This document shows positions 10,339 through 43,045 of a stretch of DNA of 64,000 bases, piece by piece. The position numbers and the translations under genes are program-made. Numbering within the stretch: the first letter of the stretch is position 1; every line of letters starts with the position of its first letter. The notes below the pieces were generated by a model. It saw nothing but the letters and a program-made list of their open reading frames with translations, searched no databases and had not been told where the DNA came from. The DNA is from a virus. The stretch lies in the IMG/VR virus record IMGVR_UViG_3300025010_000004, positions 49,295 through 113,294 of that record; one strand, 5' to 3'.

Positions 10339-10340
10339 AG

Positions 10341-10676
10341 TTACTCCTTGAAATATTCGTTGTAGGCTTTAACGGCCTCCTTAATTAAAGGCCACATGTC
10401 GGCAGGTACGTCGAACGCTACGTTTTTTCTACTACTGGATATTAACCTAACATCAACTTGCCCGTCAGTCTTGTTTCGTCCGTCAAAGTTAGGATAATTA
10501 TGCGTAGCAGAGAACAGGTCAATAACTCCGTGTCTGAATACTCTGCTATGCATTCTACCGGAAATATTTCCTCCAAACTCATCATCAAAATGTGTCTGTT
10601 CAAGTATAGTCACGGATGCGGTTTGTTTGTTTTTAGATAGTATGGCGGATAATTTAAGGTGTTTATGCATATTCAC
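10341..10676 (-). CDS. EQTH-family paralog 8
   Basis: KHLKL..VTILEQTHF..WPLIKEAVKAYNEYFKE; last 21 nt identical to the neighbouring paralog. Confidence 0.85.
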   Translation of the reverse strand: MNMHKHLKLSAILSKNKQTASVTILEQTHFDDEFGGNISGRMHSRVFRHGVIDLFSATHNYPNFDGRNKTDGQVDVRLISSSRKNVAFDVPADMWPLIKEAVKAYNEYFKE

Positions 10677-11004
10677 CCCTTCAACACATCTTTGTCATCA
10701 ACCCACACGTAGCCGGTAGCCAACTTGACTAAAGTTTTTCTGGCTACCCGCTCATAGACCGCGCCTTTAACCCCAAGCGTAGGAATGAACACCTCTTCGC
10801 GTTGCTTGATTATATTGGCAGATTTCCTATATCTTTTGGTTTCGGATTTCATTTATCGTACCTCCCGAATCCCTTGCCTTTACGGGCCTGTTTCCGGTCT
10901 ATCTTAAAGCCCTTGTCTTTTTCAACCTTCACGCCCTTTGTAGGAATCTTGCCGGACTTGATCTTCTCGAAGTTATTAGCGGATTGAGCCATTCGTAGTC
11001 TCCT

Positions 11005-11193
11005 TTACTTGGTAGCTTTCAGTAAGGTGTTGGTGTGGAGTCTTCTGCAGTAGCCGTAAGTCTCTCTGCGGCTGTATGAAACCCAAGCTAAACAAAACTT
11101 GGTCGCACAAAGGTTTCTATTTCCGTCTTCGTTTGATATTCCTACTCCGAAAGGACAGCGTAGTTTTACAGCTTCTTCTTCCAGAATTCGCAT
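11005..11193 (-). CDS. small Cys-rich hypothetical protein
   Basis: CPF..C...C.AW..GYC; AAAGGAG RBS. Confidence 0.6.
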   Translation of the reverse strand: MRILEEEAVKLRCPFGVGISNEDGNRNLCATKFCLAWVSYSRRETYGYCRRLHTNTLLKATK

Positions 11194-11292
11194 TATTAAT
11201 GTCTCCTTTGAATGCGGTTGATATTACTTTGGCGTAGTATAAAGCATTTTTAAATGAGTCACCTAGCAGCCAATATTTTATAGTCAGTAGTA

Positions 11293-12639
11293 TCACTTTA
11301 ACGCCGCCTTCATTCTTGCGACGGCCTCTTTCTTTCCAAGGACGTGCATTACATTTACTACAGGAGGCGAAGCTGTTTTACCTGTGAGAGCCATGCGTAT
11401 TTGCGGTCCGAGTTCTTTTAGCGTTACGTTATGTTTTTTACAGCCGTGGCTAATGGCCTCTTCTATATCTTCTATAGAATAGGTCTTTTTCTTCTCAAGT
11501 ATTTCCACTATGGAACCTACTGAATGATCGGCCCTTACCGCTTTAGGCTTTTTGTAATACACCTCAGCCATTTCTGCAATCTCAATTAAAGTCTTTGCCC
11601 TCGGCTGCAACAACTTCACAACCTCAATAATATCAGGGCCTTTGTCAGTTTTGTAGTGCATGAACGGCTTGGCTTGTTCCGCTATTCTCTTGGGATCGCC
11701 GTTCTTAATCCAATGCGCGTTAATGTGCAGCATTTTGTTCGGATCAAGACACCCTGGCGCTCTACCTACCGAATTAAGCGAGAACTTTTGTATCAGGTCG
11801 TCCATTGAGAATATTTCTTCATTCTTGTAGCTCCAGCCTACACGGGCAAGCCCATTGACAACAGCCTCCGGAAGAAAACCTTTATCCCTGTAGTCAAGGA
11901 CAGAAGCATCACCGTTTCTCTTACTGAGTTTTTCGCCTTTATCATTAAGGATGAACGGGGTGTGGGCATATTCAGGAACCGGAAAGCCAAGCGCCTGATA
12001 CAGCATAGTCTGGGCTGGCACGTTGCCTACTCCGTCAACGCCTCGGACAATATGTGTAACACCCTGTAGGGCATCATCAACCATATTTGCAAGGAGGTAT
12101 CCTACGCTTCCGTCCTGCCGTTGGATTACGAAGTCGCTGATCTCGCTGTTCTTCACGCTGATCTTTCCGAGAACATGATCTTTCCATTCTACGCGGCCCT
12201 GGTCTTGGGTCTTAAACCGTATGACGAATGGCTTTCCTTCTTGCTCTGGCTTTTCATAGCAGGTTCTATCGTAGAGGGGCTTTTGCTTGTTCCTCAGCAT
12301 TTCATCCCTTTTTGCTGTGAGTTCTTCTGCCGTGCAGTAACACTTGTAGGCTTTTTTCTCTTTCAGGAGTTTATCTACGTATTCCTTGTAGATGTGACCT
12401 CGTTCGCTTTGGTAGATTATTTCTACGTCACTTTTGATGCCAAGCCAGTTGAGCCCTTCTAAAATGTTGTCTGCGAACTCTTGGGTAGATCTTGAAAAAT
12501 CGGTATTCTCAATACGCACGATAAAAGTTCCTTTATGTTGCCTAGCAAAAATATAATTATGCAAACTCTGGCGGGCCATCCCACAGTGCCCTGGGCCGGT
12601 GTTAGATGGTGCTACGCGGCATACAATAGGTTTAGTCAT
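11293..12639 (-). CDS. gltX: glutamate--tRNA ligase (divergent)
   Basis: RVAPSNTG.HCGM, RIENTD, YQSER, AYKCYC..YDRTC, VDD..HIVRG, KLSKR, anticodon domain IRMALTG...P; start at MTKPIV. Confidence 0.92.
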   Translation of the reverse strand: MTKPIVCRVAPSNTGPGHCGMARQSLHNYIFARQHKGTFIVRIENTDFSRSTQEFADNILEGLNWLGIKSDVEIIYQSERGHIYKEYVDKLLKEKKAYKCYCTAEELTAKRDEMLRNKQKPLYDRTCYEKPEQEGKPFVIRFKTQDQGRVEWKDHVLGKISVKNSEISDFVIQRQDGSVGYLLANMVDDALQGVTHIVRGVDGVGNVPAQTMLYQALGFPVPEYAHTPFILNDKGEKLSKRNGDASVLDYRDKGFLPEAVVNGLARVGWSYKNEEIFSMDDLIQKFSLNSVGRAPGCLDPNKMLHINAHWIKNGDPKRIAEQAKPFMHYKTDKGPDIIEVVKLLQPRAKTLIEIAEMAEVYYKKPKAVRADHSVGSIVEILEKKKTYSIEDIEEAISHGCKKHNVTLKELGPQIRMALTGKTASPPVVNVMHVLGKKEAVARMKAALK

Positions 12640-12669
12640 AATTAAATTCTCCTTTGTGTTAGTTTGTAA

Positions 12670-12685
12670 GTAGAACATTTTCTAC
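12670..12685. promoter_or_regulatory. GTAGAA-N4-TTCTAC palindrome
   Basis: AA-GTAGAACATTTTCTAC-TT upstream of gltX RBS. Confidence 0.75.
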
Positions 12686-12693
12686 TTTTTAGT

Positions 12694-12723
12694 TAATAAA
12701 AAATGCTTATATTCGGTATATAA
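12694..12723 (+). promoter_or_regulatory. putative phage late promoter
   Basis: TAATAAAA-N14-GTATATAA, same spacing as 3 late-region copies. Confidence 0.7.
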
Positions 12724-12774
12724 TACATATAGGAGCAGTTGGATTCGGCTCAAATAACTTATACTGGAGACGCG

Positions 12775-14031
12775 ATGAACCATTTTTACGTTTACTGCTA
12801 CACAAACCCAACAAAACCTGGAAGGTTCACTTTCCCTAATACAAATCTTTCTTTTCTATATGAACCTTTTTACATCGGTAAAGGTGCTTTAGATAGGATG
12901 TATAATCATGTTAATGAGTCAATTAAAAAGAAAAATAAAACATGGAAAAATAAAACAATTTTATCTATATTAGAATCTGGGTACAATCCTAAAGACTTTG
13001 CATTTAAGCTGGCTGTACAATTAACAGAGGAGGAGGCATACTCAGTAGAGGAAACGTTAATAGCCACTATCGGCAGGCTGTCTACTAGAAAAGGCCCACT
13101 ACTTAATATACGAACTGGCGGGTTAGGGAGTAGTAATAAAAGTTATTGGAAAACAACTAATAAACTAACCCCAATACAAGAATACGAATGTGTATCTTTA
13201 TACTTAAATGGTGAATCTATTAGTACATTATCAGCTAGGTTTGGGTTATTTAAAACCGCCATCCGAGGTATATTACTACGGCACGATGTAACAATAGTAC
13301 GTAAACCCACAGAAAAAAGAAGCAAGACTTTAAGTCTCATCCCAAATATTCTAGAAGACTACGAAAACGGTATGTCATCTATAAAAATAGGACAAAAATA
13401 CTGTATATCAAAACGCACTGTATTATCAGAGCTTAGGAAAGCAGGAGTAACTATGAAAGAGCCTGCTTTCTATAAGACTATAAAAGATGAAGATGTACCT
13501 AATATAAGAGCCGCCTTTTTACGTGGAGAACGTGTAGAAGCTTTGGCCAAAAAATATAAAGTATCCACTAATACTATAAATAGGGCTATTCGTTATAATG
13601 AAGTAGTAACAGCAACTGGAAAATTAAAAATTAAAACTAACATTACCAGGCATAACCTGCTTAAAAAACTAACCGAAGACCAAGAATATCAACTAGGTCA
13701 AGACTACATAGCTGGTATGTCATCTAGTGAATTAGCAGCAAAGTATAACGTTTTCTACACAACAGCCCTAGCAATTTTGAAACGACTCAACATACAAACT
13801 AGGCCTAGTTCAACACCAGACAAAACAACAATTGACCTAACACCAGAAGTTATAGAAATGTACCAGTCAGGACTAAGCTCTCTCGATATATTCAGAAAGT
13901 TGCCAGTAAGTCGCAACACAATTTTACGCATTCTTCACAGAAATAATGTACCACTTAGGCAAAGTGGAAAGCAGCCTACTAAGGTTATAGGTAGTAGTGA
14001 TGCAGAAGAACTTGATGCTATGATGCAATAG
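12775..14031 (+). CDS. GIY-YIG-like free-standing homing endonuclease with several C-terminal HTH-like repeats
   Basis: FYVYCY..PFYIGKG..R..H..E..LI..IGR..GPLLN; repeated Y..G.S...(L/I)..KY; opposite strand, AT-rich. Confidence 0.8.
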   Translation: MNHFYVYCYTNPTKPGRFTFPNTNLSFLYEPFYIGKGALDRMYNHVNESIKKKNKTWKNKTILSILESGYNPKDFAFKLAVQLTEEEAYSVEETLIATIGRLSTRKGPLLNIRTGGLGSSNKSYWKTTNKLTPIQEYECVSLYLNGESISTLSARFGLFKTAIRGILLRHDVTIVRKPTEKRSKTLSLIPNILEDYENGMSSIKIGQKYCISKRTVLSELRKAGVTMKEPAFYKTIKDEDVPNIRAAFLRGERVEALAKKYKVSTNTINRAIRYNEVVTATGKLKIKTNITRHNLLKKLTEDQEYQLGQDYIAGMSSSELAAKYNVFYTTALAILKRLNIQTRPSSTPDKTTIDLTPEVIEMYQSGLSSLDIFRKLPVSRNTILRILHRNNVPLRQSGKQPTKVIGSSDAEELDAMMQ

Positions 14032-14050
14032 TAATAGCCTGTATTGAAAC

Positions 14051-14083
14051 AGGGAAGGCTAGCCATAAACACAAGCCTTCCCT
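14051..14083. terminator. terminator between convergent genes
   Basis: AGGGAAGGCT...AGCCTTCCCT. Confidence 0.6.
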
Positions 14084-14115
14084 TCTTCTAACAGTCTACA
14101 ACGGTAGTTACATTT

Positions 14116-14781
14116 TTATCCGATCACAACAGCACAGGCGTCCACCGGTACTTCTATTGCTTTTGCAGGCGCAGCACATTTCTTCGATGCAGCGTAAACT
14201 TCGTTGTATTCTTTGACTGCATCTGCGAGCTTCTTGAAAGTGGCCGCAGGAACACGCATGACGTTGTTGTCCGAGCGGTTATCGGTTCCTCGCAGATATA
14301 GTTCGTTATGACCTATGCTGTAAAACGCTGGAGATGTATCGCTCAAAAGCTTGAACCCATTCGAGGCCACAAAATAGTTTGCATTTTCAGAAAAATCTTT
14401 TCGAATGTGCGTCTGCTCAAGAACCTGAACATCCACAAACTGAAAGTCGGGGCCAACCGGAGTGCCGGAGATCTTGATGTGGCGCGGGTCGAAGGAGAAG
14501 AAGGCGTTGTAGGCTTCGACGGCAGCTTTGATCTTGACGTATGTAGCAACTGGTACGGCTATGGTTCGGTGGTCCAGATCGCGCCGAGTTCCACGTACAT
14601 ACAGAAGACCCCCATAGAGAGCCAAAGCCCCTTGACTACTAAGAGTGAACCCATCGTGCTTGAATTCCTCACCACAAGTACCGAATTCAGCTCCCCTGTG
14701 GCTCTGCTCAACAATTCCTATCTCTACTGTCTGAAAATCCGGCCCGATAGGTTTCACACTCAGTTTGATACTTTTCTTCAT
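14116..14781 (-). CDS. EQTH-family paralog 9, two tandem domains + CxVIIG tail
   Basis: P(I/V)GPDFQ.V...EQ(S/T)H..RGT..AV..YN twice; ends VDACAVVIG*. Confidence 0.85.
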   Translation of the reverse strand: MKKSIKLSVKPIGPDFQTVEIGIVEQSHRGAEFGTCGEEFKHDGFTLSSQGALALYGGLLYVRGTRRDLDHRTIAVPVATYVKIKAAVEAYNAFFSFDPRHIKISGTPVGPDFQFVDVQVLEQTHIRKDFSENANYFVASNGFKLLSDTSPAFYSIGHNELYLRGTDNRSDNNVMRVPAATFKKLADAVKEYNEVYAASKKCAAPAKAIEVPVDACAVVIG

Positions 14782-14821
14782 TTGTTACCTCCTTTGTTGT
14801 GGTTGTGTTGCAAATTGAGAA

Positions 14822-14837
14822 GTAGAACTTGTTCTAC
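14822..14837. promoter_or_regulatory. GTAGAA-N4-TTCTAC palindrome
   Basis: GTAGAACTTGTTCTAC, 2 bp after a stop codon. Confidence 0.8.
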
Positions 14838-14839
14838 TT

Positions 14840-15115
14840 TCACAGACTTATCAGTATACTCTTGCCGCGTTTGCGAATAGAAACCTCATAATTATCTTCT
14901 TTTTCTTGGGCGGAAATAAGAGAATCTCCATACCATACACAATATTTTTCATCACATTTAGCATCGTCTGGGAGCAGCCATATGGCCAAACGCTCTTCTG
15001 AGGTCTGCAGTTCGCGTAGGGCTTTTTCCAAGTCGGCGCGTACTAATTCCACCCTTTTCTTTGCGGCCAGCCACGTCTTTACAAGTTCTTCACCTTTACT
15101 TGTTAGATCAGACAT
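14840..15115 (-). CDS. hypothetical protein
   Basis: 91 aa, GGAGG RBS, N-terminal coiled coil. Confidence 0.7.
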   Translation of the reverse strand: MSDLTSKGEELVKTWLAAKKRVELVRADLEKALRELQTSEERLAIWLLPDDAKCDEKYCVWYGDSLISAQEKEDNYEVSIRKRGKSILISL

Positions 15116-15190
15116 TTATTCCTCCAAGCTTGAATTAAGTAGCAACCTCTATTGAAAGCATAAGCCAACGCCGGTGCTTCTAAGAACCTA

Positions 15191-15718
15191 TCACCAGTCG
15201 CCTCCGCCTCCGCCACCTCCGAAATCTCCACCGCCTCCGCCGAAGTCGCTACCGCTGCTACTTCCACTGTCTCCTCCACCGCCGAACATCGAGCCTAGCG
15301 CAAATCCTGCTGCAGCAGCAAGGATAGAGTCGCCTGTTTCGCTGTGGCTGCGTTTGTGTTTACGTGCTTCCTCTTCCTCGCGCTCTTTTCGACGCTGTGT
15401 AGGCGACTTTGTTTCAGCCGGAGTAGGCCTTGGTGTAGGTGGTTGTTTATACATAGGAGTTGGGTTGGAAAAATTACCAGCAACATACCCGGCTGTAGCA
15501 ACTCCTAACGGAGCGTAGTTAGCTCCATTACGCTCGTTGTAGCTCTTTACTTCACTTCGGTAAGCAGCCACCTCAGCTAAGCGCCTTTCTTCGTCCTTCC
15601 GGCTCTGTTCGGCTTTTCTGCGTCTTCGGTTTCGTATAGCCAGAGCTATGGAAAGCCCGACGAAGAACACAAAAGCTACTACGAAAACAAGAATACAAAC
15701 TCTTGCAAGTGCATCCAT
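15191..15718 (-). CDS. membrane protein with Gly-rich C-terminus (resembles the C-terminal half of TPM proteins)
   Basis: N-terminal TM + RRRRK, ends GGGGGDFGGGGGGGDW. Confidence 0.75.
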   Translation of the reverse strand: MDALARVCILVFVVAFVFFVGLSIALAIRNRRRRKAEQSRKDEERRLAEVAAYRSEVKSYNERNGANYAPLGVATAGYVAGNFSNPTPMYKQPPTPRPTPAETKSPTQRRKEREEEEARKHKRSHSETGDSILAAAAGFALGSMFGGGGDSGSSSGSDFGGGGGDFGGGGGGGDW

Positions 15719-15733
15719 TTCGCCTTCTCCTTT

Positions 15734-16327
15734 CTATTTAATAGTGTTTAGTACTGCGTCAACGGCATCAACGAACCCTTTGTCGAAGTTGCCTTCCTTA
15801 AACGCAATGCGCATTTTGTCTCTGACTATCTTACCGGCGGCAATATCGGTTAGCTTCTCTTCCAATCCACGGCCAACCTCAATCCTCATTTTACGATCAC
15901 CGCGAGATGCAAAGATAAGCACACCATCGTCTTTGCCTGACTTGCCCAACTTCCACGTTTCGCATACCGTCATTGTGTACGACTCAATATCAGAGTCGTT
16001 CAGGGACGGTATCGTAAGAATGGCTATTTGTGGGCCTCCACTTTTTAAGGTAGAGATGAGCAGTCTGTTCAACTGGTTTTTAGCCGAGTCAGAAATCATC
16101 CCGGCATAGTCATTGACCGGAGCTTTTAGCTCAGGTATTACCGCCTTGTTGACGGGAGTTGTGTCACTGCACCCGGCTGCCATTCCTAAGGCAAAGATAA
16201 CTAACGCCAATGCTATTGGGGCTAATGCTTCCTTTAACCTGTACAAGCGATAACTGCAGGAGTACCCTGGCTGCCACACTTCTCGCAACCCACCTAGCCA
16301 GTATTGCAGGCGTTCTTTCATGCACAT
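15734..16327 (-). CDS. TPM-domain (YgcG-like) protein
   Basis: VNDYAGMIS, QIAILTIPSL...IE.Y, WKLG..GKDDGVL, RKMRIEVGRGLE..LTD. Confidence 0.9.
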   Translation of the reverse strand: MCMKERLQYWLGGLREVWQPGYSCSYRLYRLKEALAPIALALVIFALGMAAGCSDTTPVNKAVIPELKAPVNDYAGMISDSAKNQLNRLLISTLKSGGPQIAILTIPSLNDSDIESYTMTVCETWKLGKSGKDDGVLIFASRGDRKMRIEVGRGLEEKLTDIAAGKIVRDKMRIAFKEGNFDKGFVDAVDAVLNTIK

Positions 16328-16332
16328 CTCCT

Positions 16333-16956
16333 TTACGGTTTATTGTTTGATGGAGCTGCGCCACTGAAGCTGACTTTGGGCGCAATCTTCGCTCCCTCGT
16401 CAGACTTGAACGGTGTCTTCTTTTCCAGGTTAAGCAGGAGCGAGTTTGTAATTGAATTTGGGAACGTTCGTATCATGGTGTTGAATTCAGCCACTACTTT
16501 GTTGTAGCGCACACGTTCCGTGTTTATCCGGTTCTCGGTTCCCTCCAATTGGCTTTGCAGATTCATAAAACTTTCATTGGCCTTGAGGTCGGGGTATTTT
16601 TCAGTTACCATCATAAGCCGAGACAAGGCGGAGCCGATTGTTTGTTGCTGCGCCTGGAACTTGGCCATTTGCGCTGCATCCTGAAGACCTTTAGGATCAA
16701 GTTTGATTTGACCTACCGAGGCGCGTGCTTGAGCAACCTGTGTAAAGGTTTCTTTTTCGTGGGCAGCGTAGCCCTTTACGACCTCTACGAGGCTGGGGAT
16801 GAGATCTGCACGCCGTTGATAAGCAGCCTCAACATCGGCCCACTTGGCAAACACTTGCTCTTCCTTCGCTTGGATGGAGTTGTAGCCGCACCCGCTGTTA
16901 ATCAACATGAACGCCGCCATTGCCAACATCAGCCCTACTCTTACGAAACTCTTCAT
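16333..16956 (-). CDS. lemA: LemA family protein
   Basis: GCGYN, W..VE..YQRRADLIPSLV..VKGYA.HE, E.YPDLKAN..F..LQ.QLEGTENRI..R..YN. Confidence 0.95.
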   Translation of the reverse strand: MKSFVRVGLMLAMAAFMLINSGCGYNSIQAKEEQVFAKWADVEAAYQRRADLIPSLVEVVKGYAAHEKETFTQVAQARASVGQIKLDPKGLQDAAQMAKFQAQQQTIGSALSRLMMVTEKYPDLKANESFMNLQSQLEGTENRINTERVRYNKVVAEFNTMIRTFPNSITNSLLLNLEKKTPFKSDEGAKIAPKVSFSGAAPSNNKP

Positions 16957-16978
16957 TTGTTCCTCCTTTGGTGTGATA

Positions 16979-16994
16979 GTAGAACAAGTTCTAC
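16979..16994. promoter_or_regulatory. GTAGAA-N4-TTCTAC palindrome
   Basis: GTAGAACAAGTTCTAC upstream of lemA RBS. Confidence 0.8.
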
Positions 16995-17004
16995 TTGGTT
17001 AAGG

Positions 17005-17331
17005 TTAACGCATGCGATGCATCTCATCAAGGTCAACGTACAGTACGTCGCCTTCGTTACCAAAAAGTCCAAAAATGTTTATTCGTTCTTCTGTTGACAC
17101 CACCTCAAGCATGGCCCAGTCATTGCTGTAGGTCGCAGACGCTCCTTGTTCTCTGCTTCTGTTTTTCTCGTCCCTACCCCCGTAATACTGCTTGACTATT
17201 ACTACTTCGTCAAGCCCTACATGTGGGTTGTTTTGGTACTTAACGAACTGTGGCACAACAATCGCTAGTATCATACCAACAATTGCTACCACAATAAGCA
17301 ACTCTATCAACGTAAATCCACGCGATTTCAT
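17005..17331 (-). CDS. type IV pilin-like protein (prepilin N-methylation motif)
   Basis: MKSRG|FTLIELLIVVAIVGMILAIVVPQF. Confidence 0.88.
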   Translation of the reverse strand: MKSRGFTLIELLIVVAIVGMILAIVVPQFVKYQNNPHVGLDEVVIVKQYYGGRDEKNRSREQGASATYSNDWAMLEVVSTEERINIFGLFGNEGDVLYVDLDEMHRMR

Positions 17332-17500
17332 TTTACCTCCTTTAACTCATTATTTTGTATCTTCCACCAAAGTTTATGTGCATAGCTGTTATGGGCGGAT
17401 TAGGCAAAGGCTTTCCACAAACCACACACTTAGGAATTTTGTAAAGGTTCAATACTTCCGCCGGAATGTACTTGCATATATGCTTAGCAAAAGTCATACG

Positions 17501-17695
17501 TCACCAGAACTTATGCAAGAAGTGAAACACTACGTAGGGAATGTAGCCTGCCCATAACACACACCCTAACCCAGTGACAGCAGCCGCTATTACTAAGAGT
17601 AGTATAACAATGTTCCTGTGAGGAAGCACACAAGAGGCTGTTATGACAAGACCAAACGCTATGAACATGTAAAGTATACAAGGATCAACAGACAT
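17501..17695 (-). CDS. small membrane protein
   Basis: Two hydrophobic segments, AAGGAG RBS. Confidence 0.6.
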   Translation of the reverse strand: MSVDPCILYMFIAFGLVITASCVLPHRNIVILLLVIAAAVTGLGCVLWAGYIPYVVFHFLHKFW

Positions 17696-17707
17696 ATTGG
17701 TTTCTCC

Positions 17708-18283
17708 TTAATCTTCGAGATGTGCCCCGTAGTTCCTGCCGTCTGGAAGAGGTCTAATGGCTGCCTTGTACTTTTGGTATAGAGGGTTTCTCATTAAAAG
17801 GTTCTTACCGTACATGTCATAAATCTTATCAAATATACCACAACCTACATCATGGGTAGGCCCGGTTCCAGAAACACCACCAGTAAGCATGGCAATGAAT
17901 ATAAGCTCTTCCTCTGAAAAATATATCTGTGGCTTTGGCTCTTCCTTTGGTTTATCTGAGAAGTGTTCATTGTAGGCTTCGATTGCTGCTTTTACGCGGG
18001 GCCAATACCCAAGGGGTATACTAACCTCCATATTATCCCCCCCTTTGTTAGCCCCTCTGGTGTAAAGAGCTATATCAGCTTTACCGTCCATGAACCTTGG
18101 AAGCCCGTCTTTCGTATAGAACTGTGGGTGAGCAGAAGATACAATAGCGCACCCTCCAGAGAAGAATACCCCTACTCCTTGTGTAATAGTATCTCCAAGA
18201 TCAACTCCTCGATGAGTCTGTTCCACTATTACGATTTTCATAGTATTTCCTGCCAATTTGCCTACTACTCTTATGTGTTTCAT
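17708..18283 (-). CDS. EQTH-family paralog 10 with extra C-terminal domain
   Basis: Start moved to MKHIRV at 18283 (GAGGAGG RBS); IVEQTH..TRG..WPRVKAAIEAYNEHF. Confidence 0.8.
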   Translation of the reverse strand: MKHIRVVGKLAGNTMKIVIVEQTHRGVDLGDTITQGVGVFFSGGCAIVSSAHPQFYTKDGLPRFMDGKADIALYTRGANKGGDNMEVSIPLGYWPRVKAAIEAYNEHFSDKPKEEPKPQIYFSEEELIFIAMLTGGVSGTGPTHDVGCGIFDKIYDMYGKNLLMRNPLYQKYKAAIRPLPDGRNYGAHLED

Positions 18284-18300
18284 ACCGGTAAATTCCTCCT

Positions 18301-18723
18301 CTATTGTGCTTCGTTTTTGTCGTAGATAGCGGCATACAAGGGTATATTGGCCGTGCAGCACTGTGAGTTGTAGGCTGCCAAATCGTAGCCTACAACTGCG
18401 AACGCCTTGTACATCATTATCCATAGCTTGAGTTCGGCTATCCTTTTGCGGACTGCCTTGCCGAACACGTAGAAGCGGATGGTGCGTATGATTGGGAGGC
18501 GCAGAATAGCATATTCTGCTACTGTTGGTAGTCCTTCGTATCTATTACATCTATGCCCTTTTATACTTATCCACGGGCAGGAGTCGCACTTAAGATTACT
18601 TACTTTGCACAAAGAACAACCCGTATAGGTCGTCTTGTGCGTGTATTTACGATACTCCACTATAAGCTGTTCCATAGCCTTGATATTCTCTTTGACGTTT
18701 ACCGGGGCCTTAAGCAGTCGCAT
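18301..18723 (-). CDS. hypothetical protein with CxxC..CxxCPW motif
   Basis: CSLC....CDSCPW; overlaps upstream stop. Confidence 0.65.
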   Translation of the reverse strand: MRLLKAPVNVKENIKAMEQLIVEYRKYTHKTTYTGCSLCKVSNLKCDSCPWISIKGHRCNRYEGLPTVAEYAILRLPIIRTIRFYVFGKAVRKRIAELKLWIMMYKAFAVVGYDLAAYNSQCCTANIPLYAAIYDKNEAQ

Positions 18724-20086
18724 TTTTGATTTCTCCTTTTTCTATGAGGGTTTTAGTGTATAACAGCCCGTCTTCCCTTGTCAAGAACTTTTCTTCCATT
18801 TGGTCTTCATACAGCCGTTGGAGGATAGCGCCGAAATGTTTTCCAGGCTCCATGCCCATATCAATAAGGTCTCGGCCAAGAATAATCGGGGTGACTTGTG
18901 ATTTTATTTCCTCGAACACGCGCATGACCTCAGAAATCCTAGCTGAGTTTTCAGGCTCATATTCAGCGGCTACAACACCACCACGTCCAAGCCTATCCGC
19001 CTTGTGCAATTTTACTAGCTTATACATGTCAACCGAGGCGGCCAACTTGCGCACAGCCTTACGGCTCACCCCTGCTTTCTTAAAATCGTAAGGCCTCATG
19101 TGATGCTTAATGAGATTTATAGCGGATTCAGTAAGTCCTATCTCATTTGTTAGCCGAGCGATAGCCTTTTCAGCCAAAGAAGTCTCTTCCGCGTGACCTT
19201 TGAAATGAATCTTACCGCTGTCTTCTGTGTTGACCTCATTAGGAACAAGCCCCTTCCCTAAATCATGAAATAAGAGGGCCAGCATAATATCCAATTCCCT
19301 GTCAATAACAGGAATGGCATCTATTGCCATAAGGGTGTGATTATACACGGAACCTTCTGGATGATACGTGCTTCCTTGTTCAATTTTCTTGGTAGCGACC
19401 AGCTCAGGAAACAGTACATCGAGAATGTCCATAGCCTCAAGCGTCTTGAAGAAAACGGATGGAAGAGGAGCGTTCATTAGAACTCGCACCACTTCATTAA
19501 ACACTCGTTCCTGAGGCAGAGCTTTAACTTTAATTGGGCCGTGTACTTTGCATAGCGCCATTGTTTGAGCTTCTATGTTCATGAACGGGTAAATAGCCTT
19601 GAACCTCGCTACTCTCAATATACGCAAAGGGTCTTCCATGAATGTGCCAACATTCACGTGCTTTATGCGCAAGATACGAAGGTCAGGTATCCCATTAAAC
19701 GGGTCTTCGAACTTACCCGTCAACGGATCGAGGTAAATAGCGTTCATCGTCAAGTCCCTACGAACCGCTGCCAAGCTCAACGGCAGCTCTTCGCGTATCC
19801 TAGCGGTTAGATCACGGTGTCCTTCGCCAGTTTGCTCATCAAGCCTCGGCAGGCTAACGTCAATATCTTTGACTTTGTAAACTCCGTATTGCTTGCCTAC
19901 GTAGTTGACCTCACCGAAAGTTTCGAGAACTGCTTCGAGCTTCTCGGCTGAGAGGTTGAAAACTTCAATGTCTATGTCGGTGGAAGGTATGCCTAGGAGT
20001 AAATTTCTTACGTGGCCTCCTGTATAAAAAACTGAACCTCCCGCCTTGTGAATTGCCAACGATAGTTCAAGCGCAAACTTTTGCAT
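18710..20086 (-). CDS. cca: CCA-adding tRNA nucleotidyltransferase with HD domain
   Basis: GGHVRNLLLG...DIDIE, RRDLTMNAI, EDPLRILRVARF, ERV..E, HPEG.V..HT, HDLGK. Confidence 0.92.
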   Translation of the reverse strand: MQKFALELSLAIHKAGGSVFYTGGHVRNLLLGIPSTDIDIEVFNLSAEKLEAVLETFGEVNYVGKQYGVYKVKDIDVSLPRLDEQTGEGHRDLTARIREELPLSLAAVRRDLTMNAIYLDPLTGKFEDPFNGIPDLRILRIKHVNVGTFMEDPLRILRVARFKAIYPFMNIEAQTMALCKVHGPIKVKALPQERVFNEVVRVLMNAPLPSVFFKTLEAMDILDVLFPELVATKKIEQGSTYHPEGSVYNHTLMAIDAIPVIDRELDIMLALLFHDLGKGLVPNEVNTEDSGKIHFKGHAEETSLAEKAIARLTNEIGLTESAINLIKHHMRPYDFKKAGVSRKAVRKLAASVDMYKLVKLHKADRLGRGGVVAAEYEPENSARISEVMRVFEEIKSQVTPIILGRDLIDMGMEPGKHFGAILQRLYEDQMEEKFLTREDGLLYTKTLIEKGEIKNATA

Positions 20087-26397: not shown

Positions 26398-26472
26398 TGG
26401 CGTCCCTTACAGGATTTGAACCTGTGTCTCTCGCGTGAAAGGCGAGTGTCCTGTCCACTAGACTAAAGGGAC
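26398..26472 (-). tRNA. tRNA-Glu (TTC)
   Basis: GTCCCTT/AAGGGAC acceptor, CTCGC-CTTTCAC-GCGAG anticodon arm, TTCAAAT T-loop, encoded CCA. Confidence 0.95.
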
Positions 26473-28150: not shown

Positions 28151-28293
28151 GATGTGCTCCTTGCTATTTATTTTTAAGCACCAAAGAACTTTCTTTCCGC
28201 TTCTTTCTGCTTTCTGGCTGACTTACGATCTACCTTGCTCATAACGCCTCCTTAGTCATTGAATGTGTGCCATGATAACCGACCATGCAGAAG

Positions 28294-28309
28294 GTAGAAC
28301 ATGTTCTAC
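28294..28309. promoter_or_regulatory. GTAGAA-N4-TTCTAC palindrome
   Basis: AG-GTAGAACATGTTCTAC-CT. Confidence 0.85.
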
Positions 28310-28550
28310 CTAACTTATGTTGTTTGATTTCATTTTCAAAGCTTCTTGTAGGGACTAAGGTAGCCTTGAAAATAACATCAAAGGTATTTTGGAGGCAGAC
28401 TATTAGCGGTCTGCCAGCGCACCAGCGACAACTGGAAACAGTTTTAAGTCATGCTTAGGACTATAGCATTGCGCCGGAGCAGCAGGGGGCTACAGCGGGA
28501 AGCATCCATTTGATCGTTTTCATGGTGATTCCTCCTTTCTTTTGGGTTAA

Positions 28551-28775
28551 TTAACAGTATTTACCATCCAAAGGGATGAATGTGACTATGTTTCTAGCGC
28601 CGTCTGGGATATGTTGAAAGTAATCTTGAAGACAGCACACCCAGGCCTCTTCTGTGGTTTTGCTAATACCATGTCCTGGCGTTCTCCAATATCCTTTATC
28701 AGTAATGTATATGTGCCCTTTAGTTTCTAAGGGAAGGGCTTTAATTTCTTCTTGGGTTAGTGTTTGAGGTGGCAT
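28551..28775 (-). CDS. hypothetical protein
   Basis: 74 aa, AGGAG RBS. Confidence 0.65.
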   Translation of the reverse strand: MPPQTLTQEEIKALPLETKGHIYITDKGYWRTPGHGISKTTEEAWVCCLQDYFQHIPDGARNIVTFIPLDGKYC

Positions 28776-28804
28776 TTAACGTCTCCTAAGATGTAAGAAA
28801 GCGA

Positions 28805-28820
28805 GTAGAACATGTTCTAC
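28805..28820. promoter_or_regulatory. GTAGAA-N4-TTCTAC palindrome
   Basis: Perfect copy next to the 12-bp array. Confidence 0.85.
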
Positions 28821-28856
28821 CTTTAGGGTAACATGTAAGGTAAGGTAACTTACCGT

Positions 28857-29016
28857 TAATATATCTGTTAACCTTTGAGGTAACATGCAAGGTAACATGC
28901 AAGGTAATATATCTGTTAACCTTTGAGGTAACATGCAAGGTAACATGCAAGGTAACATGCAAGGTAACATGCAAGGTAACATGCAAGGTAACATGCAAGG
29001 TAACATGCAAGGTAAC
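28857..29016. repeat. 12-bp tandem repeat AGGTAACATGCA (iteron-like)
   Basis: 7 perfect copies at 28926-29009 plus 2 earlier copies inside a duplicated 48-bp unit. Confidence 0.95.
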
Positions 29017-29372
29017 GCACTAACTAACCTATCCGTTAACCTTTAAGGTGATGATTAAGGTAATAACCCCAAATCCTACCGACCCTCGGTTTCCCCAAAC
29101 ATTATATAGAATATCAATAATAACAAAGTTTATGGGGGTTATGAAACACTACCTTCACCCAAAACAACCAAAACATAAATCCAATTCTCCCCATACCGCC
29201 TTGCCATATGTGATTTCAACTACTTAGCAACTACTCTCAAGGTCATTTTCAAGGCCACATTCCAGCAATTTTAGGTGCCTCTATTGCCACCTGGGAGTTG
29301 AAACCCAACCGTCCGGAATGTGACCTTGAAAGTGACCTTGAAGGTTATCTTTTAAAAACCTTCAAGGTCAAG

Positions 29373-29388
29373 GTAGAACATGTTCTAC
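29373..29388. promoter_or_regulatory. GTAGAA-N4-TTCTAC palindrome
   Basis: Perfect copy. Confidence 0.85.
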
Positions 29389-29413
29389 CCACCGAAAATC
29401 AACTCCACCTCCG

Positions 29414-29563
29414 CTAGCGCACAATTAGCCTTTTATCAGGAACTACGATAACCGGCACGATAAGGCCCCGAGCTATAACCCCGTCCTTGAACAGGTTGAA
29501 TTCATTTCTGGTATTGGACATAATGCGGTGGATTTTCTCTTTGCCTCTTAGCAGGTCTTTCAT
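29414..29563 (-). CDS. small hypothetical protein
   Basis: MKDLLRGK start with AGGAGG RBS. Confidence 0.55.
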   Translation of the reverse strand: MKDLLRGKEKIHRIMSNTRNEFNLFKDGVIARGLIVPVIVVPDKRLIVR

Positions 29564-29587
29564 TTGCTTCCCTCCTAGGTTTGTGAG

Positions 29588-29603
29588 GTAGAACATGTTC
29601 TAC
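29588..29603. promoter_or_regulatory. GTAGAA-N4-TTCTAC palindrome
   Basis: Perfect copy, contains stop of a small TM ORF ending KPTTKR*. Confidence 0.85.
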
Positions 29604-29790
29604 CTTTTAGTTGTTGGTTTGTTTCTGAAGTAGAGAGTCGATGCGATGCACACAACGGTACACCACGCTAAGAACAATAGCGTTTCTTCTAGGGATGTGA
29701 GATGTGGCATTTGGTAATCCTCCTTATTTTTTAATTAAAGCCGAAGGCGGCTAAATTAAAAAATTATAATGTTCAAATCAAAAATAAAGC

Positions 29791-29901
29791 TTGACAAAAT
29801 CGCAAAAGTGTGGTATAATAGAGGCATATCTTGAGTGAAACGAAAGATATGCGGTTATAGGTTTATAAGCCTTTAGGTATGCCTTACCCTAAACCTTAAC
29901 C
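29791..29901 (+). promoter_or_regulatory. sigma70 promoter + hairpin + 12-bp repeats (module copy 2)
   Basis: TTGACA-17-TATAAT; GCATATCTT-GAGTGAAACGA-AAGATATGC; CCTT cores every 12 bp. Confidence 0.75.
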
Positions 29902-30103
29902 TATCTATATTTTCGTGCCGATTCCTGAATGATTCCGAAGGGTTACACAATACACTAATGATTACGGGTATTTATGTGTAGCCTTTATCAGCTTTATTAA
30001 CCTTCCAGGCACCTTCAATGTTACCTTGCAATTTATTCAGGCGTAGCCAAGTAATGTGCAAGGTAATGTTGAAGGTAGAAATCAAGTTACTTTCCTTTCA
30101 AAG

Positions 30104-30119
30104 GTAGAACATGTTCTAC
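30104..30119. promoter_or_regulatory. GTAGAA-N4-TTCTAC palindrome
   Basis: AAG-GTAGAACATGTTCTAC-CTT (22-bp palindrome). Confidence 0.85.
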
Positions 30120-30375
30120 CTTCATAGCTTCTGTTTTAAGGCGCAAAAAAGCCGATCTAACGCAATTATAGGTCAGTACCTGGGCATGGATACCCAAGAT
30201 ATGGCTATAGTGGTTAGAATCGGCTTGTGGCTTTTTCATAGTTAATTTCCTTATAGCCCTTGTTTCGGCTATTTAGTGTATGTGGTTTATGCTTCAAATT
30301 TGACTTGTAAGGTAATTTGATTAATCACCTTAGCATGAGCTAGAGTAACTAATCAAGTGACCTTACAGGCATGGT

Positions 30376-30416
30376 TAAGGTGCCTGTAAGGTGCCTGTAA
30401 GGTGCCTGTAAGGTGC
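30376..30416. repeat. 11-bp tandem repeat TAAGGTGCCTG x3.7
   Basis: Read directly; inverted copy at 30361-30371. Confidence 0.9.
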
Positions 30417-30420
30417 ATAT

Positions 30421-30615
30421 TTAGGTGGTCAGGTCGATGTATTGACCACAGTTAGTCAGGCAAAAGTCAAGGTTAACGTGGTCAGGATTAACACCTGCTT
30501 TCAATTCAAAGACTTCATGTGCATAGAGGCACTGGCACTGCATATGCTCATAGTGCGTACATAGCGTACAAACTTTACGTGTACGCGCATTTTCATCGGC
30601 GATAATTCTAGCCAT
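30421..30615 (-). CDS. small Cys/His-rich protein
   Basis: MARII start with AAGGAG RBS; CTLCTH..CQC. Confidence 0.6.
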   Translation of the reverse strand: MARIIADENARTRKVCTLCTHYEHMQCQCLYAHEVFELKAGVNPDHVNLDFCLTNCGQYIDLTT

Positions 30616-30668
30616 GGTTAATGCTCCTTTGCTACGTTCTTTTCTACGTAGCACGCTCAAATTTAGCT

Positions 30669-30730
30669 TCTAAAGGCTTTTCTAAAGGTCACTGGTATAG
30701 ATACTAGTAACCTTTAGAAAAGCCTTTAGA
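30669..30730. repeat. 30-bp near-perfect inverted repeat
   Basis: TCTAAAGGCTTTTCTAAAGGTCACTGGTAT-AG-ATACTAGTAACCTTTAGAAAAGCCTTTAGA. Confidence 0.85.
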
Positions 30731-30762
30731 CTGCCATATCGACAGCCTAAAGGCCCTTGTTG

Positions 30763-31476
30763 TTAGCCGTTAACCGCTTCTGCCTCCGGCTTTTCTTCTG
30801 CAGGAATAGCGCCTTCTTTAGCTTTCAGCTCCCTCTGCTTTTTCTCTTTTTCGGCCTTTTCAGCGTCAAGATCTGGACGCAACGCGTCTGCTATGGCGGT
30901 CAATGCCGGTTTGATTTCTTCCTTCAGCTCCGGTGACAGAAGCGCCGATTCTTCAAGCACTTTCAATGCAGCAAAGACCTTTGCAAGGTTCTTTTCGTGT
31001 TCCGTAGCGATAGGAGCAAAGGCGGGTTTTTTAGCCTTTACTACTTCGCCGGTAGTTTCATCCTTTACCGGCTCGCCGTCTTTCATTAGCACTTCTTCCG
31101 TAAAGTAAAGGTCGGTTATATTCCGGTCGATGTATTGCTGTAAAGCTTTCAGGCCGGAAGCGCGCTTGTTACCGTGCTTTATTGCTGCGGTAGTCCAGCT
31201 GTAAAACTTTGCCGGATTGTTGGGGTTAACGGTGCGGTGTTCTTCCGGAAAGGTATCATAGATGCGCTGTACGAAAAGCACTGTGTTTGCTTTTCCCGTC
31301 GAATAATCGGTAGTCATCGGGAAAATCGGTTTAAACATTTCAAACAATTCCTTGCTTCCCTCGTTAATTGCGTCAATCCCCTTGGAGAGGTTAAGCGCCT
31401 TTTCTGACGCGATTTTCCCCATTTCAATGAGGTTGACTGCCGCTGAACCTACAAGAATTTCCGCTGTGTTTGCCAT
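30763..31476 (-). CDS. hypothetical protein, first gene of the leftward arm
   Basis: 237 aa, AAAAGGAG RBS, charged C-terminus. Confidence 0.8.
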   Translation of the reverse strand: MANTAEILVGSAAVNLIEMGKIASEKALNLSKGIDAINEGSKELFEMFKPIFPMTTDYSTGKANTVLFVQRIYDTFPEEHRTVNPNNPAKFYSWTTAAIKHGNKRASGLKALQQYIDRNITDLYFTEEVLMKDGEPVKDETTGEVVKAKKPAFAPIATEHEKNLAKVFAALKVLEESALLSPELKEEIKPALTAIADALRPDLDAEKAEKEKKQRELKAKEGAIPAEEKPEAEAVNG

Positions 31477-31533
31477 GGTGATAACTCCTTTTCTGTTGTC
31501 TGCTTTTGGCAGGGTATTCGCTTCCCGTTATGA

Positions 31534-31549
31534 GTAGAACATGTTCTAC
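31534..31549. promoter_or_regulatory. GTAGAA-N4-TTCTAC palindrome (rightmost full copy)
   Basis: Perfect copy. Confidence 0.85.
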
Positions 31550-31602
31550 TTGTGGAAAGCTACGTTGTTTTAATGAGGATGCACTAATCCCTTGGTCTTA
31601 CG

Positions 31603-32078
31603 TTGGCATGGTTCTTGCATACCAGGGCCTTCATCTGCAAAGGCAGGAATTAGAACAATCTAATGAGAGAGACCGGGCCTAATGCCTTGCGGCATCACGC
31701 TATACATCACTCATATTGCAGAAGGAGTGCCAGTCTTGTTATGCCTGGCATTTTATTTTTATTACTTAGCAATATAGCATAGTTACAAGGTTACTATAAT
31801 GTTGTTATGCCTGTTATAACATTGGCTATGGGCCTTACTTGCTTAGATAGTAGGCACTATTTTCTGATAATTGTGTAAGTACGTGTAATTGTTACATAAT
31901 GTGCTGCCTAATAAATAGACAGCGTTGATTAAATAATAGGCAATATGCAATGAGCGTGCCAATATGTAATGAGTAGAACATTTGAGACTTATGTTGATTG
32001 TATGGCATGATATATGCATAGTAGCTATAATTGTAATAGTGGTTGGTATGGTATATGCATTAGCATATAGTGTGCCAA
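31603..32078. promoter_or_regulatory. cluster of six sigma54-type -24/-12 motifs
   Basis: TGG(C/T)A..N..TGC(A/T) with GG-N10-GC spacing at 31603(+), 31717(-), 31946(-), 32003(+), 32044(+), 32062(-). Confidence 0.65.
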
Positions 32079-32340
32079 CGTATAGTCTACTTAATCTATC
32101 GACTAAGTATATTAGCTTATCTTCATTAATACGGTCAGTCCTCATGCCTGTATTATACACTAGAACAGTGTTATAAAGCCAGCGGAGTATCATTATCCTG
32201 GCTTAATGAGTATACGTGGGGGCGGTGCGCTCATTAGAGCCGTTTTAATGAGAGCTATTTCCCATCCGTTCCACCTGAATAGTTATTTTAAACGTTACAT
32301 AATTGTAACAACCAAACATAACCATAAACATTATTTAAGT

Positions 32341-32532
32341 CACTTTCAATACCACCTTCAAGACTACCTTAAACATCACCATAAAGGTTACCTTTAAGGT
32401 TACCTTAACATCACCTTAACCCGCACCTACCCAGTATTTTACTTAAGGCACCCCAAAGATTACCTTAAATGTTACTTTCAATATCACCACAAACATTACA
32501 TTAAACATCACCATAAAAGTAACCTTCAAGAT
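32341..32532. repeat. degenerate 12-bp periodic repeat (YACCTT core)
   Basis: cactttcaatac caccttcaagac taccttaaacat caccataaaggt tacctttaaggt..., second run from 32461. Confidence 0.8.
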
Positions 32533-32584
32533 CAATTCCTAAAATTTAAAAATAAATACCAAATACTATATAGCCATATAAGAA

Positions 32585-32611
32585 AAGCCTCTCTATAAAA
32601 TAGAGAGGCTT
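32585..32611 (-). terminator. rho-independent terminator ending the 32.6-43 kb leftward block
   Basis: AAGCCTCTCTA-N5-TAGAGAGGCTT with U-tract on the minus strand. Confidence 0.7.
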
Positions 32612-32841
32612 CCTTCTTCCATAAAAAATTTGGTCAAACGCTATATAACCCTACCATCCATATAGAGTATCGCGTCTAAAACTACAACACCTCTCCCTCA
32701 AGCTTCTTAATCGACTCGTCAAACCTCATAACGTCATCAATCAAGCAATCTACTATGCCATCCAATTCTCCAACCTCATCGTCAAGCTCTTCAAACATCT
32801 GCTCAAGCTTTTCCAACCTACTCAATATGTTTTTAATATTA

Positions 32842-33143: not shown

Positions 33144-33611
33144 TTACTCTACCTTAAACCTAAAAGGTTCCTTTCCTTGTCTAAACAACCATATTGCCTC
33201 AGCCTGGCAGCAATGACCTTCCTGCCCGAAGAAGTCAGAGAAGCCATTATACTGTTCTATGACTTTTATAAGTTCAGGGTTTCCTTTTAGGTACACCCAC
33301 CATAGCATGTAATAGAATTCTTTCAATAAACTTACCGGCCATTTTTTACCATTAAACATAAAAGCAACTGTGGTCTTTCCTTTAGCTTCCTTCCAATGTA
33401 ACCCAGTCTCTAAATTGCCCCAGGCATCTTCAATTACTTTGGCACGCTGGAACCTAGACTCTATTGACTCGCTTAGGATTCCGCTGCCTATGTAGGCGTT
33501 AAAAGCACTAAATCTCTTATCGCCTCTATTACTACATTCAAGGAATGGCGGTTCTCCAAAGAACTGCATATTATCTATCCCTACTAATATCAGATAGACT
33601 TGTTCTGTCAT
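33144..33611 (-). CDS. NADAR-like (DarG1-type) ADP-ribosyl hydrolase
   Basis: LECS.RGDKRFSAFNA, IE..FQ..KV, FY..LW..YL..NPEL...Y.GFSD.F..CQA; probable start Met at 33569. Confidence 0.6.
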   Translation of the reverse strand: MTEQVYLILVGIDNMQFFGEPPFLECSNRGDKRFSAFNAYIGSGILSESIESRFQRAKVIEDAWGNLETGLHWKEAKGKTTVAFMFNGKKWPVSLLKEFYYMLWWVYLKGNPELIKVIEQYNGFSDFFGQEGHCCQAEAIWLFRQGKEPFRFKVE

Positions 33612-42706: not shown

Positions 42707-42979
42707 CTATTTCCCCCTGTTCTTACGTCTTGAATCTTTGGCCATCTTGCGCTTGACCTTGGATTTAGCTTTTTTATTCTGAACCTTCTTCTGTGTAATC
42801 TCAAGCTTCTTTAGTTGAGATTTTTTGTAGGCCAGCAAATCAGCCACAACTTTATCGCGGCGGGATACTGCCTCTTCTATTCTAGCTACCTCGTCTACTG
42901 AAATTGATTCGCCGGGTGAATCTGTCATTTTAAATCCTCCTTGATTTTTAAATAATGCATTATACCATACTTTGCCCAA
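42707..42979 (-). CDS. small basic protein
   Basis: Probable start MTDSPG (AAGGAGG RBS); K.KRKMAKDSRRKNR tail. Confidence 0.65.
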   Translation of the reverse strand: MGKVWYNALFKNQGGFKMTDSPGESISVDEVARIEEAVSRRDKVVADLLAYKKSQLKKLEITQKKVQNKKAKSKVKRKMAKDSRRKNRGK

Positions 42980-42987
42980 AAAGTCAA
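42959..42987 (-). promoter_or_regulatory. sigma70-type promoter
   Basis: TTGACT-17-TATAAT, divergent from the late region. Confidence 0.8.
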
Positions 42988-43045
42988 GTAAAATATTTCA
43001 ATTTGGAAAAATAAAAAATTATTTTCACTTTCTGAAAGATTTTAC

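Follow-up and report, generated by a model that had tools for sequence, protein, structure and literature searches.

The control region examined here raises the question of why a phage carries, within ∼480 bp, six sites that resemble the −24/−12 promoters of the bacterial sigma factor σ54 (RpoN), and of what reads them. Bacterial promoters of the enhancer-dependent σ54 type (glnAp2, pspA, and nifH are examples) follow the consensus TGGCAC-N5-TTGCW. With no activator present, the holoenzyme (Eσ54) already forms closed complexes that are stable, and firing requires an ATPase activator through which a host signal is reported. Usual accounts of phage transcription invoke host σ70, phage sigma factors, and phage polymerases, and a σ54 route has rarely been described for phages. 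The virus record concerned is complete (113,294 bp, with a 127-bp terminal repeat); the window analyzed here is the 64,000-nucleotide stretch covering its bases 49295-113294, and all positions refer to this window unless stated otherwise.

By its protein sequences, the phage is a distant T5-like siphovirus, because its large terminase is ∼30% identical to the terminases of T5-like phages, and its portal and capsid proteins belong to standard families. Its genes run leftward from ∼43 kb down to the window start, and the cluster lies in the control region that heads the long leftward accessory arm. The upstream leftward module, which encodes glycosyltransferases, a radical SAM enzyme, four tRNAs, PhoH, and NADAR, is closed by an intrinsic terminator that is kept in L024, one of two relatives described below. 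The first protein of the arm (237 aa) is 94% identical in L024 over 203 aligned residues; searches of Pfam and PDB gave no match, and its one PHROG match was marginal (E = 0.008), with the function unassigned there. Beyond this gene, the arm encodes a Pol-beta-like nucleotidyltransferase, tRNA-Glu, a pilin-like protein, LemA, and a TPM-domain protein, as well as a CCA-adding enzyme, GluRS, the RNA ligase RtcB, and a NAPRTase/NAMPT-type enzyme. The sole long ORF across the region (31843..32193, minus strand) was rejected as a gene, being interrupted by a 41-nt indel in L024, and the cluster DNA is therefore taken as non-coding; its placement in non-coding DNA upstream of the first leftward gene (30763..31476, minus strand), as originally proposed, was correct.

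Several other features of the genome were recorded alongside. An RNA-repair and counter-defence set occupies 6204-20086, 26398-26472, and 33144-33611, and comprises RtcB, the CCA-adding enzyme, GluRS, five tRNAs, the NAPRTase/NAMPT-type NAD salvage enzyme, and a DarT-associated NADAR-like protein. The LemA and TPM-domain genes are adjacent (15734-16956), and the pair looks cell-derived. A 108-aa protein (17005-17331, minus strand) begins with a type IV pilin N-terminus (MKSRG followed by FTLIELLIVVAIVG; Pfam N_methyl), whereas its C-terminal part is unrelated. Directly downstream of the first arm gene, a gene-poor stretch (28290-30760) holds more tandem repeats, namely the 12-mer AGGTAACATGCA in 11.6 copies and the 11-mer TAAGGTGCCTG in 3.7 copies, together with a 30-bp inverted repeat near 30669. 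The phage genes carry strong Shine-Dalgarno sites.

Table 1. Features of the control region and its borders, in window coordinates.
Feature	Position	Strand	Description
Non-coding control region	31477..32681	.	1,205 bp between two leftward gene modules; 36.5% GC; from the ORF list
First gene of downstream arm	30763..31476	-	237 aa; ATG at 31476; no known family
Junction palindrome	31534..31549	.	GTAGAACATGTTCTAC; copy nearest the cluster
GTTTTAATGAG motif	31567..31577	+	Adjoins S1; family D14; next to S1 in all three phages
S1	31604-31619	+	TGGCATGGTTCTTGCA; PWM 18.4 bits; faces away from arm
Predicted small non-coding RNA from S1	31630..31765	+	∼125-135 nt; antisense to S2 leader
Nearly invariant 45-nt block	31655..31700	-	Hairpin AUGCC-GCAA-GGCAU, GNRA loop on leftward strand; -14.5 kcal/mol, z -4.4
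S2	31717-31732	-	TGGCACTCCTTCTGCA; PWM 16.0 bits; faces arm
Terminator-like hairpin	31724..31754	+	-12.9 kcal/mol; U-rich tail to ∼31765
Near-palindrome	31803..31821	.	TGTTATGCC-T-GTTATAACA; ∼100 nt upstream of S2; candidate activator site
S3	31946-31961	-	TGGCACGCTCATTGCA; PWM 20.1 bits, best site; faces arm
S4	32003-32018	+	TGGCATGATATATGCA; PWM 16.4 bits; faces away from arm; back to back with S3
S5	32044-32059	+	TGGTATGGTATATGCA; PWM 13.6 bits; weaker; faces away from arm
S6	32062-32077	-	TGGCACACTATATGCT; PWM 15.8 bits; faces arm; inverted repeat I10 with S5
Conserved 23-mer with TATAAT hexamer	32150..32172	-	AACAYTGTTCTAGTGTATAATAC; candidate σ70 promoter for arm
Inverted repeat CTCATTA-N9-TAATGAG	32230..32252	.	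Candidate protein site or hairpin
Iteron-like repeats, 12-bp phase	32314..32534 (L006 1080-1400)	.	Adjoin the cluster
Intrinsic terminator of upstream leftward module	32585..32611	-	12-bp perfect stem, then UUUUCUUAU on minus strand

All six sites, in both orientations, were found where the original prediction had placed them, and in 6/6 the GG and GC dinucleotides are exactly 10 nt apart, as in σ54 promoters. S3, which had been singled out as a perfect consensus, does match TGGCACG-N4-TTGCA at all 12 consensus positions, and S5 reads TGGTAT, with a T in place of the C after GG (repeat family D5). Three sites (S2, S3, and S6) point toward the arm and three (S1, S4, and S5) away from it. Each site is asymmetric, which is expected of a sigma factor and not of a dimeric regulator. 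The comparison with a PWM and with shuffled sequence, proposed along with the original prediction, came out in favor of enrichment. The pattern TGGYAY-N6-TGCW occurs six times in the 1,205-bp region against 0.04 expected (2,000 dinucleotide-preserving shuffles, maximum 2), while the wrong spacings N3-N5 and N7-N9 gave no match in the region and 0-3 genome-wide, and the reversed pattern gave none in the region. Pattern scans of the 64-kb window returned 6 and 8 matches against 0.5 and 0.4 expected, numbers that 0/100 shuffles equaled. With an approximate PWM built on the published consensus, the five best scores in the whole 113-kb genome (20.1, 18.4, 16.4, 16.0, and 15.8 bits) all fall inside the 480-bp cluster; the remaining good matches are few and intragenic. 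The low complexity of the region is all that speaks for a clustering of matches by chance in this AT-rich non-coding DNA, and the probability of such clustering is negligible: none of the 2,000 local shuffles reached even 3 matches, one spacing only is enriched, and the sites are conserved in two relatives. Spacing-specific enrichment together with conservation in L024 refutes such an origin.

A site at 42415 was also considered as the promoter of a glycosyltransferase operon and was rejected, as it lies inside the GT4 coding sequence, with a classic σ70 promoter upstream instead. A textbook σ70 promoter, TTGACT-17-TATAAT at 42955-42990 (minus strand), heads the upstream leftward module, and the host therefore uses canonical −35/−10 promoters.

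Relatives were sought with an 18-mer probe, which returned 20 loci; the true relatives among these are L024 and G001 only, the other loci having no protein similarity and being chance matches. L024 is a 7.9-kb metagenome contig with flanking proteins ∼92-94% identical and intergenic DNA 81.5% identical to those of the window. G001 is an 18.5-kb viral contig whose portal protein is 73% identical; its synteny extends through PhoH and a 125-aa gene, and its intergenic DNA is unalignable save for short islands. A blastn search of the region against cultured phages gave no match, nor did searches of viral contigs with the 237-aa gene and the exact S3 20-mer, or with a profile of the 125-aa neighbor gene. 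A 67%-identical homolog, P0003, sits on a 112,665-bp contig that is probably the best third relative.

L024 keeps S1-S4. S1 is the sole site with a positional ortholog in all three phages (TGGCACGTTTCTTGCA in L024 and CGGCACAATTCTTGCA in G001), and these orthologs share GGCAY-NN-TTCTTGCATAC and the upstream GTTTTAATGAG motif in otherwise diverged DNA; in G001, the ortholog is the site nearest the downstream genes. In L024, (i) S2 differs at 4/6 spacer bases, with TGGCAY and TGCA intact; (ii) S3 has an unchanged core and two spacer changes; (iii) S4 is identical and takes the place of S5 in the face-to-face pair, with the same 2-nt gap; (iv) S5 is missing, through the 41-nt indel between ATGCATATA direct repeats; and (v) S6 is weakened at one core base (ATGCT to AGGCT). 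The loss of S5 through this indel between direct repeats shows S4 and S5 to be a local duplication. Counting ungapped columns only, with the flank columns tallied by hand from the alignments, L024 differs at 3/50 core positions and at 25/122 positions of the spacers and aligned flanks (Fisher p = 0.013); two of the three core changes are C/T swaps that the consensus allows, and counting only the one that breaks it gives p = 0.0008. By this footprint, the selective constraint is on the −24/−12 core rather than on the spacer. The orthologous 1.3 kb of G001 contains sites of 16.8 and 15.9 bits against ∼0.03 expected [Poisson P(≥2) ∼6e-4]. The σ54 reading is the most economical one, since the sites are real, are enriched only at the σ54 spacing, and are conserved with a core footprint; as two relatives keep sites, the phage probably uses or holds the host σ54 polymerase.

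The same alignments bear on the view that these are ordinary σ70 promoters, in which TTGGCA is a −35 hexamer and the σ54 match is incidental. S3 (TTGGCA-18-TATTAT), S4 (ATGGCA-18-TATAAT), and S5 (TTGGTA-17-TATAGT) do lend themselves to it, with 9-10 of 12 positions matching. However, S1, S2, and both G001 sites have, by reading, no −10 hexamer at the proper distance, and the deletion in L024 takes the TATAAT of S4 and leaves its σ54 core. The TGCW element, moreover, would fall in the spacer of such a promoter, yet it is present in 6/6 sites and conserved, and σ70-type matches are not enriched in the region (6 against 5.9 in shuffles). The phage's clear σ70 promoter, for comparison, is TTGACT-17-TATAAT. 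As read from the aligned DNA, −35/−10 hexamers that lie 16-18 nt apart and are kept in the relatives do not account for the cluster, and we regard this explanation as quite improbable.

What, then, would read the sites? Searches of the phage genome detected no Sigma54_DBD or Sigma54_CBD domain, none of the domains of enhancer-binding proteins (Sigma54_activat, Sigma54_activ_2, and HTH_8), and no Sigma70_r2 domain; no T7-type RNA polymerase was found either, which is a weak negative because the search control was also silent. Since the phage is without a detectable σ54, enhancer-binding protein, σ70-type sigma factor, or T7-type polymerase, a host enzyme must read the sites, and host Eσ54 is the simplest reader because each site is asymmetric and matches the host consensus. 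As to the host itself, the phage LemA protein matches the phylum of a Desulfobulbaceae MAG at up to 64% identity and 261 bits (26/251 genomes at ≥225 bits), compared with at most 52% and 184 bits in Pseudomonadota, at most 54% and 217 bits in Bdellovibrionota, and no match in the fourth phylum. LemA, a single gene that may have been transferred and that, of the four phyla sampled, lies nearest to Desulfobacterota, is thus a hint of a host in that phylum; in 5/5 of the Desulfobacterota genomes that best match it, rpoN is present by its Sigma54_DBD domain. The phage GluRS, with 26-44% identity to scattered lineages, is uninformative on the host. A Geobacter-like host had been suggested, and what stands of this, weakly, is the affinity of LemA with Desulfobacterota and the rpoN genes there; the pilin-like N-terminus does not add to it, as it is of a generic type IVa kind.

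S5 and S6 face each other, their 16-mers separated by 2 nt, and this face-to-face pair makes up a 34-bp palindrome; the two footprints overlap, so that simultaneous occupancy of both is impossible. A search for mirror-image pairs of TGGCAY-N6-TGCW with a gap of 0-8 nt found this arrangement in at least 120 viral contigs (IMG/VR loci L034-L153), whereas the same search with N8 spacers, as a control, found 8. Among the matches listed, the gap is confined to 2-5 nt, the GC content of the contigs ranges from 30 to 66%, and the pairs often occur in tandem sets of 2 to 7 (as in L034, L047, and L054). The 90 pair groups with callable flanks among these matches comprise 33 at divergent, 17 at convergent, and 40 (44%) at co-directional junctions, compared with 15% divergent, 10% convergent, and 74% co-directional for random positions in the same loci (divergent excess, p = 7e-7). 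The excess at divergent junctions fits promoter use in many phages; in the present phage, both flanks are co-directional. These contig sequences point to the face-to-face pair with a 2-5-nt gap as a general phage module.

The recurrence of the pair also weighs on the proposal that the motif is bound by a phage protein (a repressor, an initiator, or a partition-like protein) or is part of a replication origin with 12-bp iterons. Several features of the region are of the kind that this proposal would need: the cluster adjoins 12-bp iteron-like repeats, S5 and S6 make the 34-bp palindrome, TGGCAA...TGCCAA words occur inside the iterons of G001, and other local motifs, such as TAATGAG, are co-enriched. 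G001 has a tandem array at the equal relative position, with a period of ∼12 bp by reading and a different sequence (units such as AGTAGTATGGCA); differing sequences at an equal position are expected for origin iterons that co-evolve with their initiator. However, the iteron sequences differ between the window and G001, whereas the σ54 motif does not. Further, the single sites are asymmetric, S3 fits the 12-position host consensus exactly, and the same bipartite motif and mirror-pair form are found in phages of 30-66% GC, a recurrence that argues for a shared host factor rather than a phage-specific protein. We therefore consider a phage-encoded reader or an origin improbable.

The motifs around the sites are partly conserved as well. 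The 23-mer at 32150-32172 lies upstream of all six sites; 22/23 of its bases are equal in G001, and all three phages share its 18-mer core without a mismatch. The 23-mer carries a TATAAT hexamer and may be a σ70 promoter feeding the arm. A second copy of GTTTTAATGAG at 32242-32252 makes the two copies bracket the cluster, and TAATGAG occurs six times within 31571-32246; in G001, two copies flank the sites there. The whole 23-mer CTCATTA-N9-TAATGAG is present in L024 (5059-5081) as its exact reverse complement, with the loop flipped and the stem kept, so that either a short stretch was inverted or selection acts solely on the hairpin. The near-palindrome upstream of S2 is perfect in L024 (TGTTATGCC-A-GGCATAACA). 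It had been suggested that palindromes of the region act as enhancers, an idea for which no support emerged: the near-palindrome upstream of S2, searched for as TTATGCC-N-GGCATAA, had 3 matches among 251 genomes from the candidate host phylum, about the number expected by chance, and GTAGAA-N4-TTCTAC is no local enhancer, because its 29 copies (∼0.02 expected) lie at gene junctions genome-wide. Of these, 28 are at junctions of the leftward arm (2509-31534), the cluster standing directly upstream of the last, and one is at 52312; an operator, a processing site, or a hairpin is possible as their role. No IHF consensus was found in the control region.

Placing starts 12 nt after the GC, the predicted transcripts of S2 (start ∼31706), S3, and S6 would begin ∼230, 459, and 575 nt upstream of the arm's first ATG (31476). 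The 45-nt block at 31655..31700, which is nearly invariant in the L024 alignment, lies at the 5′ end of the predicted S2 transcript. S1 aims at a terminator-like hairpin ∼125 nt downstream, whose 5′ arm coincides with the complement of the S2 −24 box. L024 has an equal hairpin and tail, and a C-to-T change in S2 there turns a G.U pair into A-U. This hairpin, also kept in L024, suggests that S1 gives rise to a small antisense RNA. As a terminator it is only moderate (an 11-nt loop and G.U pairs). The predicted RNA has no conserved ORF (39 codons in the window and 17 in L024, by reading of the sequences), and an Rfam search of 28-33 kb gave only spurious, sub-threshold microRNA matches. The layout of promoter, short non-coding body, and terminator is present in the window and in L024, and is unconvincing in G001. 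S4 and S5 face no clear transcription unit.

From these observations, the six sites are most probably bound by host Eσ54, and we propose that at least some of them are activator-dependent promoters, including that of the S1 antisense RNA, a reading whose chances we judge to be about even. S6, S3, and S2 would start transcripts that enter the arm from downstream of the σ70-type element at 32150-32172. S1 would start an RNA of ∼125 nt that ends at the hairpin partly built of the −24 box of S2 and is antisense to the S2 leader. S4/S5 and S6 would make up a compact face-to-face arrangement: a polymerase bound on one side would keep a second from binding opposite, and the transcript from either site would begin within its partner. 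Firing would require a host enhancer-binding ATPase, and part of the arm's expression would therefore depend on the signaling state of the host. Against promoter use stand (i) the 3/6 sites that face away from the arm and the overlap of the S5 and S6 footprints, (ii) the failure to find an activator gene in the phage or a recognizable upstream activator site in the region, (iii) the long leaders of 230-575 nt, (iv) the conserved σ70-type element, which could drive the arm alone, (v) the fast turnover of sites, with S5 absent and S6 weakened in L024, and (vi) the S1 layout in G001. The σ54-driven "early" transcription of the original prediction was not borne out, half of the sites facing away from the arm.

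Alternatively, the sites may bind host Eσ54 mostly as silent closed complexes, either sequestering σ54, in which case the scarce factor would be tied up and the host σ54 regulons shut down, or acting as a roadblock, in which case σ70 transcription entering the arm from 32150-32172 would be blocked or gated. The 3:3 balance of orientations and the overlapping footprints of face-to-face pairs suit such binding, as do the location of the conserved TATAAT element on one side of all six sites and of the first gene on the other, and the lack of any activator gene or activator site among our finds. Redundancy and turnover between close relatives also fit an array in which the total number counts, Eσ54 closed complexes are stable without an activator, and 44% of the phage mirror pairs, among the matches listed, lie between co-directional genes, like here. 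Non-productive intragenic sites are, in addition, known from E. coli (PMC4591121). On the other hand, six sites per genome are a small sponge unless the phage copy number is high; S1 is individually kept in three phages and is aimed at a terminator-like hairpin, which suggests that there is a product rather than occupancy alone; and phage mirror pairs show the excess at divergent junctions that promoters would be expected to show. We judge silent binding to be rather unlikely. Sequence alone cannot separate promoter use from decoy use.

A decidedly unlikely, more specific possibility is that the cluster is a switch gated by a host signal rather than a simple set of promoters. Transcription into the arm would be held or blocked by closed Eσ54 complexes, the mutually exclusive face-to-face pair among them, until a stress-activated host enhancer-binding protein fires them. 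A sensor of damage to RNA or membranes, of the RtcR or PspF type, could serve as this activator, and the phage would read the damage alarm of its host to time its counter-defence arm (RtcB, CCA-adding enzyme, GluRS, tRNA, and NAD salvage). The face-to-face pair with its 2-5-nt gap would then be a phage-specific regulatory module common to many unrelated phages.

Returning to the sites as host-read σ54 elements, they share with bacterial σ54 promoters the bipartite −24/−12 motif, the exact spacing, an extended consensus that S3 fits, and a location in non-coding DNA upstream of a transcription unit. They differ in that the phage has no detected activator gene and no recognizable upstream activator or IHF site, and in the crowding of six sites in both orientations, with an overlapping face-to-face pair, into 480 bp. 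Small RNA genes under σ54 control include GlmY/GlmZ, Qrr1-5, and NrsZ. The predicted S1 unit is like these in its σ54-type promoter, its ∼125 nt without a conserved ORF, and its hairpin with a U-rich tail; it differs in having no Rfam match, a moderate terminator, and an unconvincing layout in G001, and the predicted RNA would be cis-antisense to a phage leader and not a trans-acting host sRNA.

Among phages, Pseudomonas phage YuA has one σ54-like promoter according to PMC10914365 (citing Ceyssens et al. 2008). YuA is alike in relying on host σ54 besides σ70, whereas the present phage, which is unrelated and distantly T5-like, carries in place of one site a dense cluster in both orientations. 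In the literature searched, YuA is the sole documented case of a σ54-like phage promoter (PMC10914365), and within that literature σ54 use can rightly be called unusual for a phage. Weak structural similarity to σ54 has also been reported for one phage protein (PMC7693777). In E. coli, genome-wide evidence has revealed many non-productive intragenic and antisense σ54 sites (PMC4591121). The phage sites resemble these in having a strong consensus in orientations that serve no downstream gene, so that a non-promoter or antisense role is possible; the E. coli sites, in contrast, are scattered singly inside host genes (PMC4591121), and the phage sites are clustered, intergenic, and conserved as a cluster. 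Our literature search found no paper describing clustered or face-to-face σ54 sites in phages.

The present cluster is of value as a clean case that has comparative support and includes a candidate sRNA unit. The RtcB genes of E. coli and Salmonella lie in a σ54/RtcR-dependent operon, and because the arm of this phage has RNA-repair genes, the link between an RtcB-bearing arm and σ54 becomes a concrete, testable question. By placing σ54 sites at the head of its accessory arm, the phage would either tie these genes to a physiological signal of the host or tie up the host σ54 polymerase.
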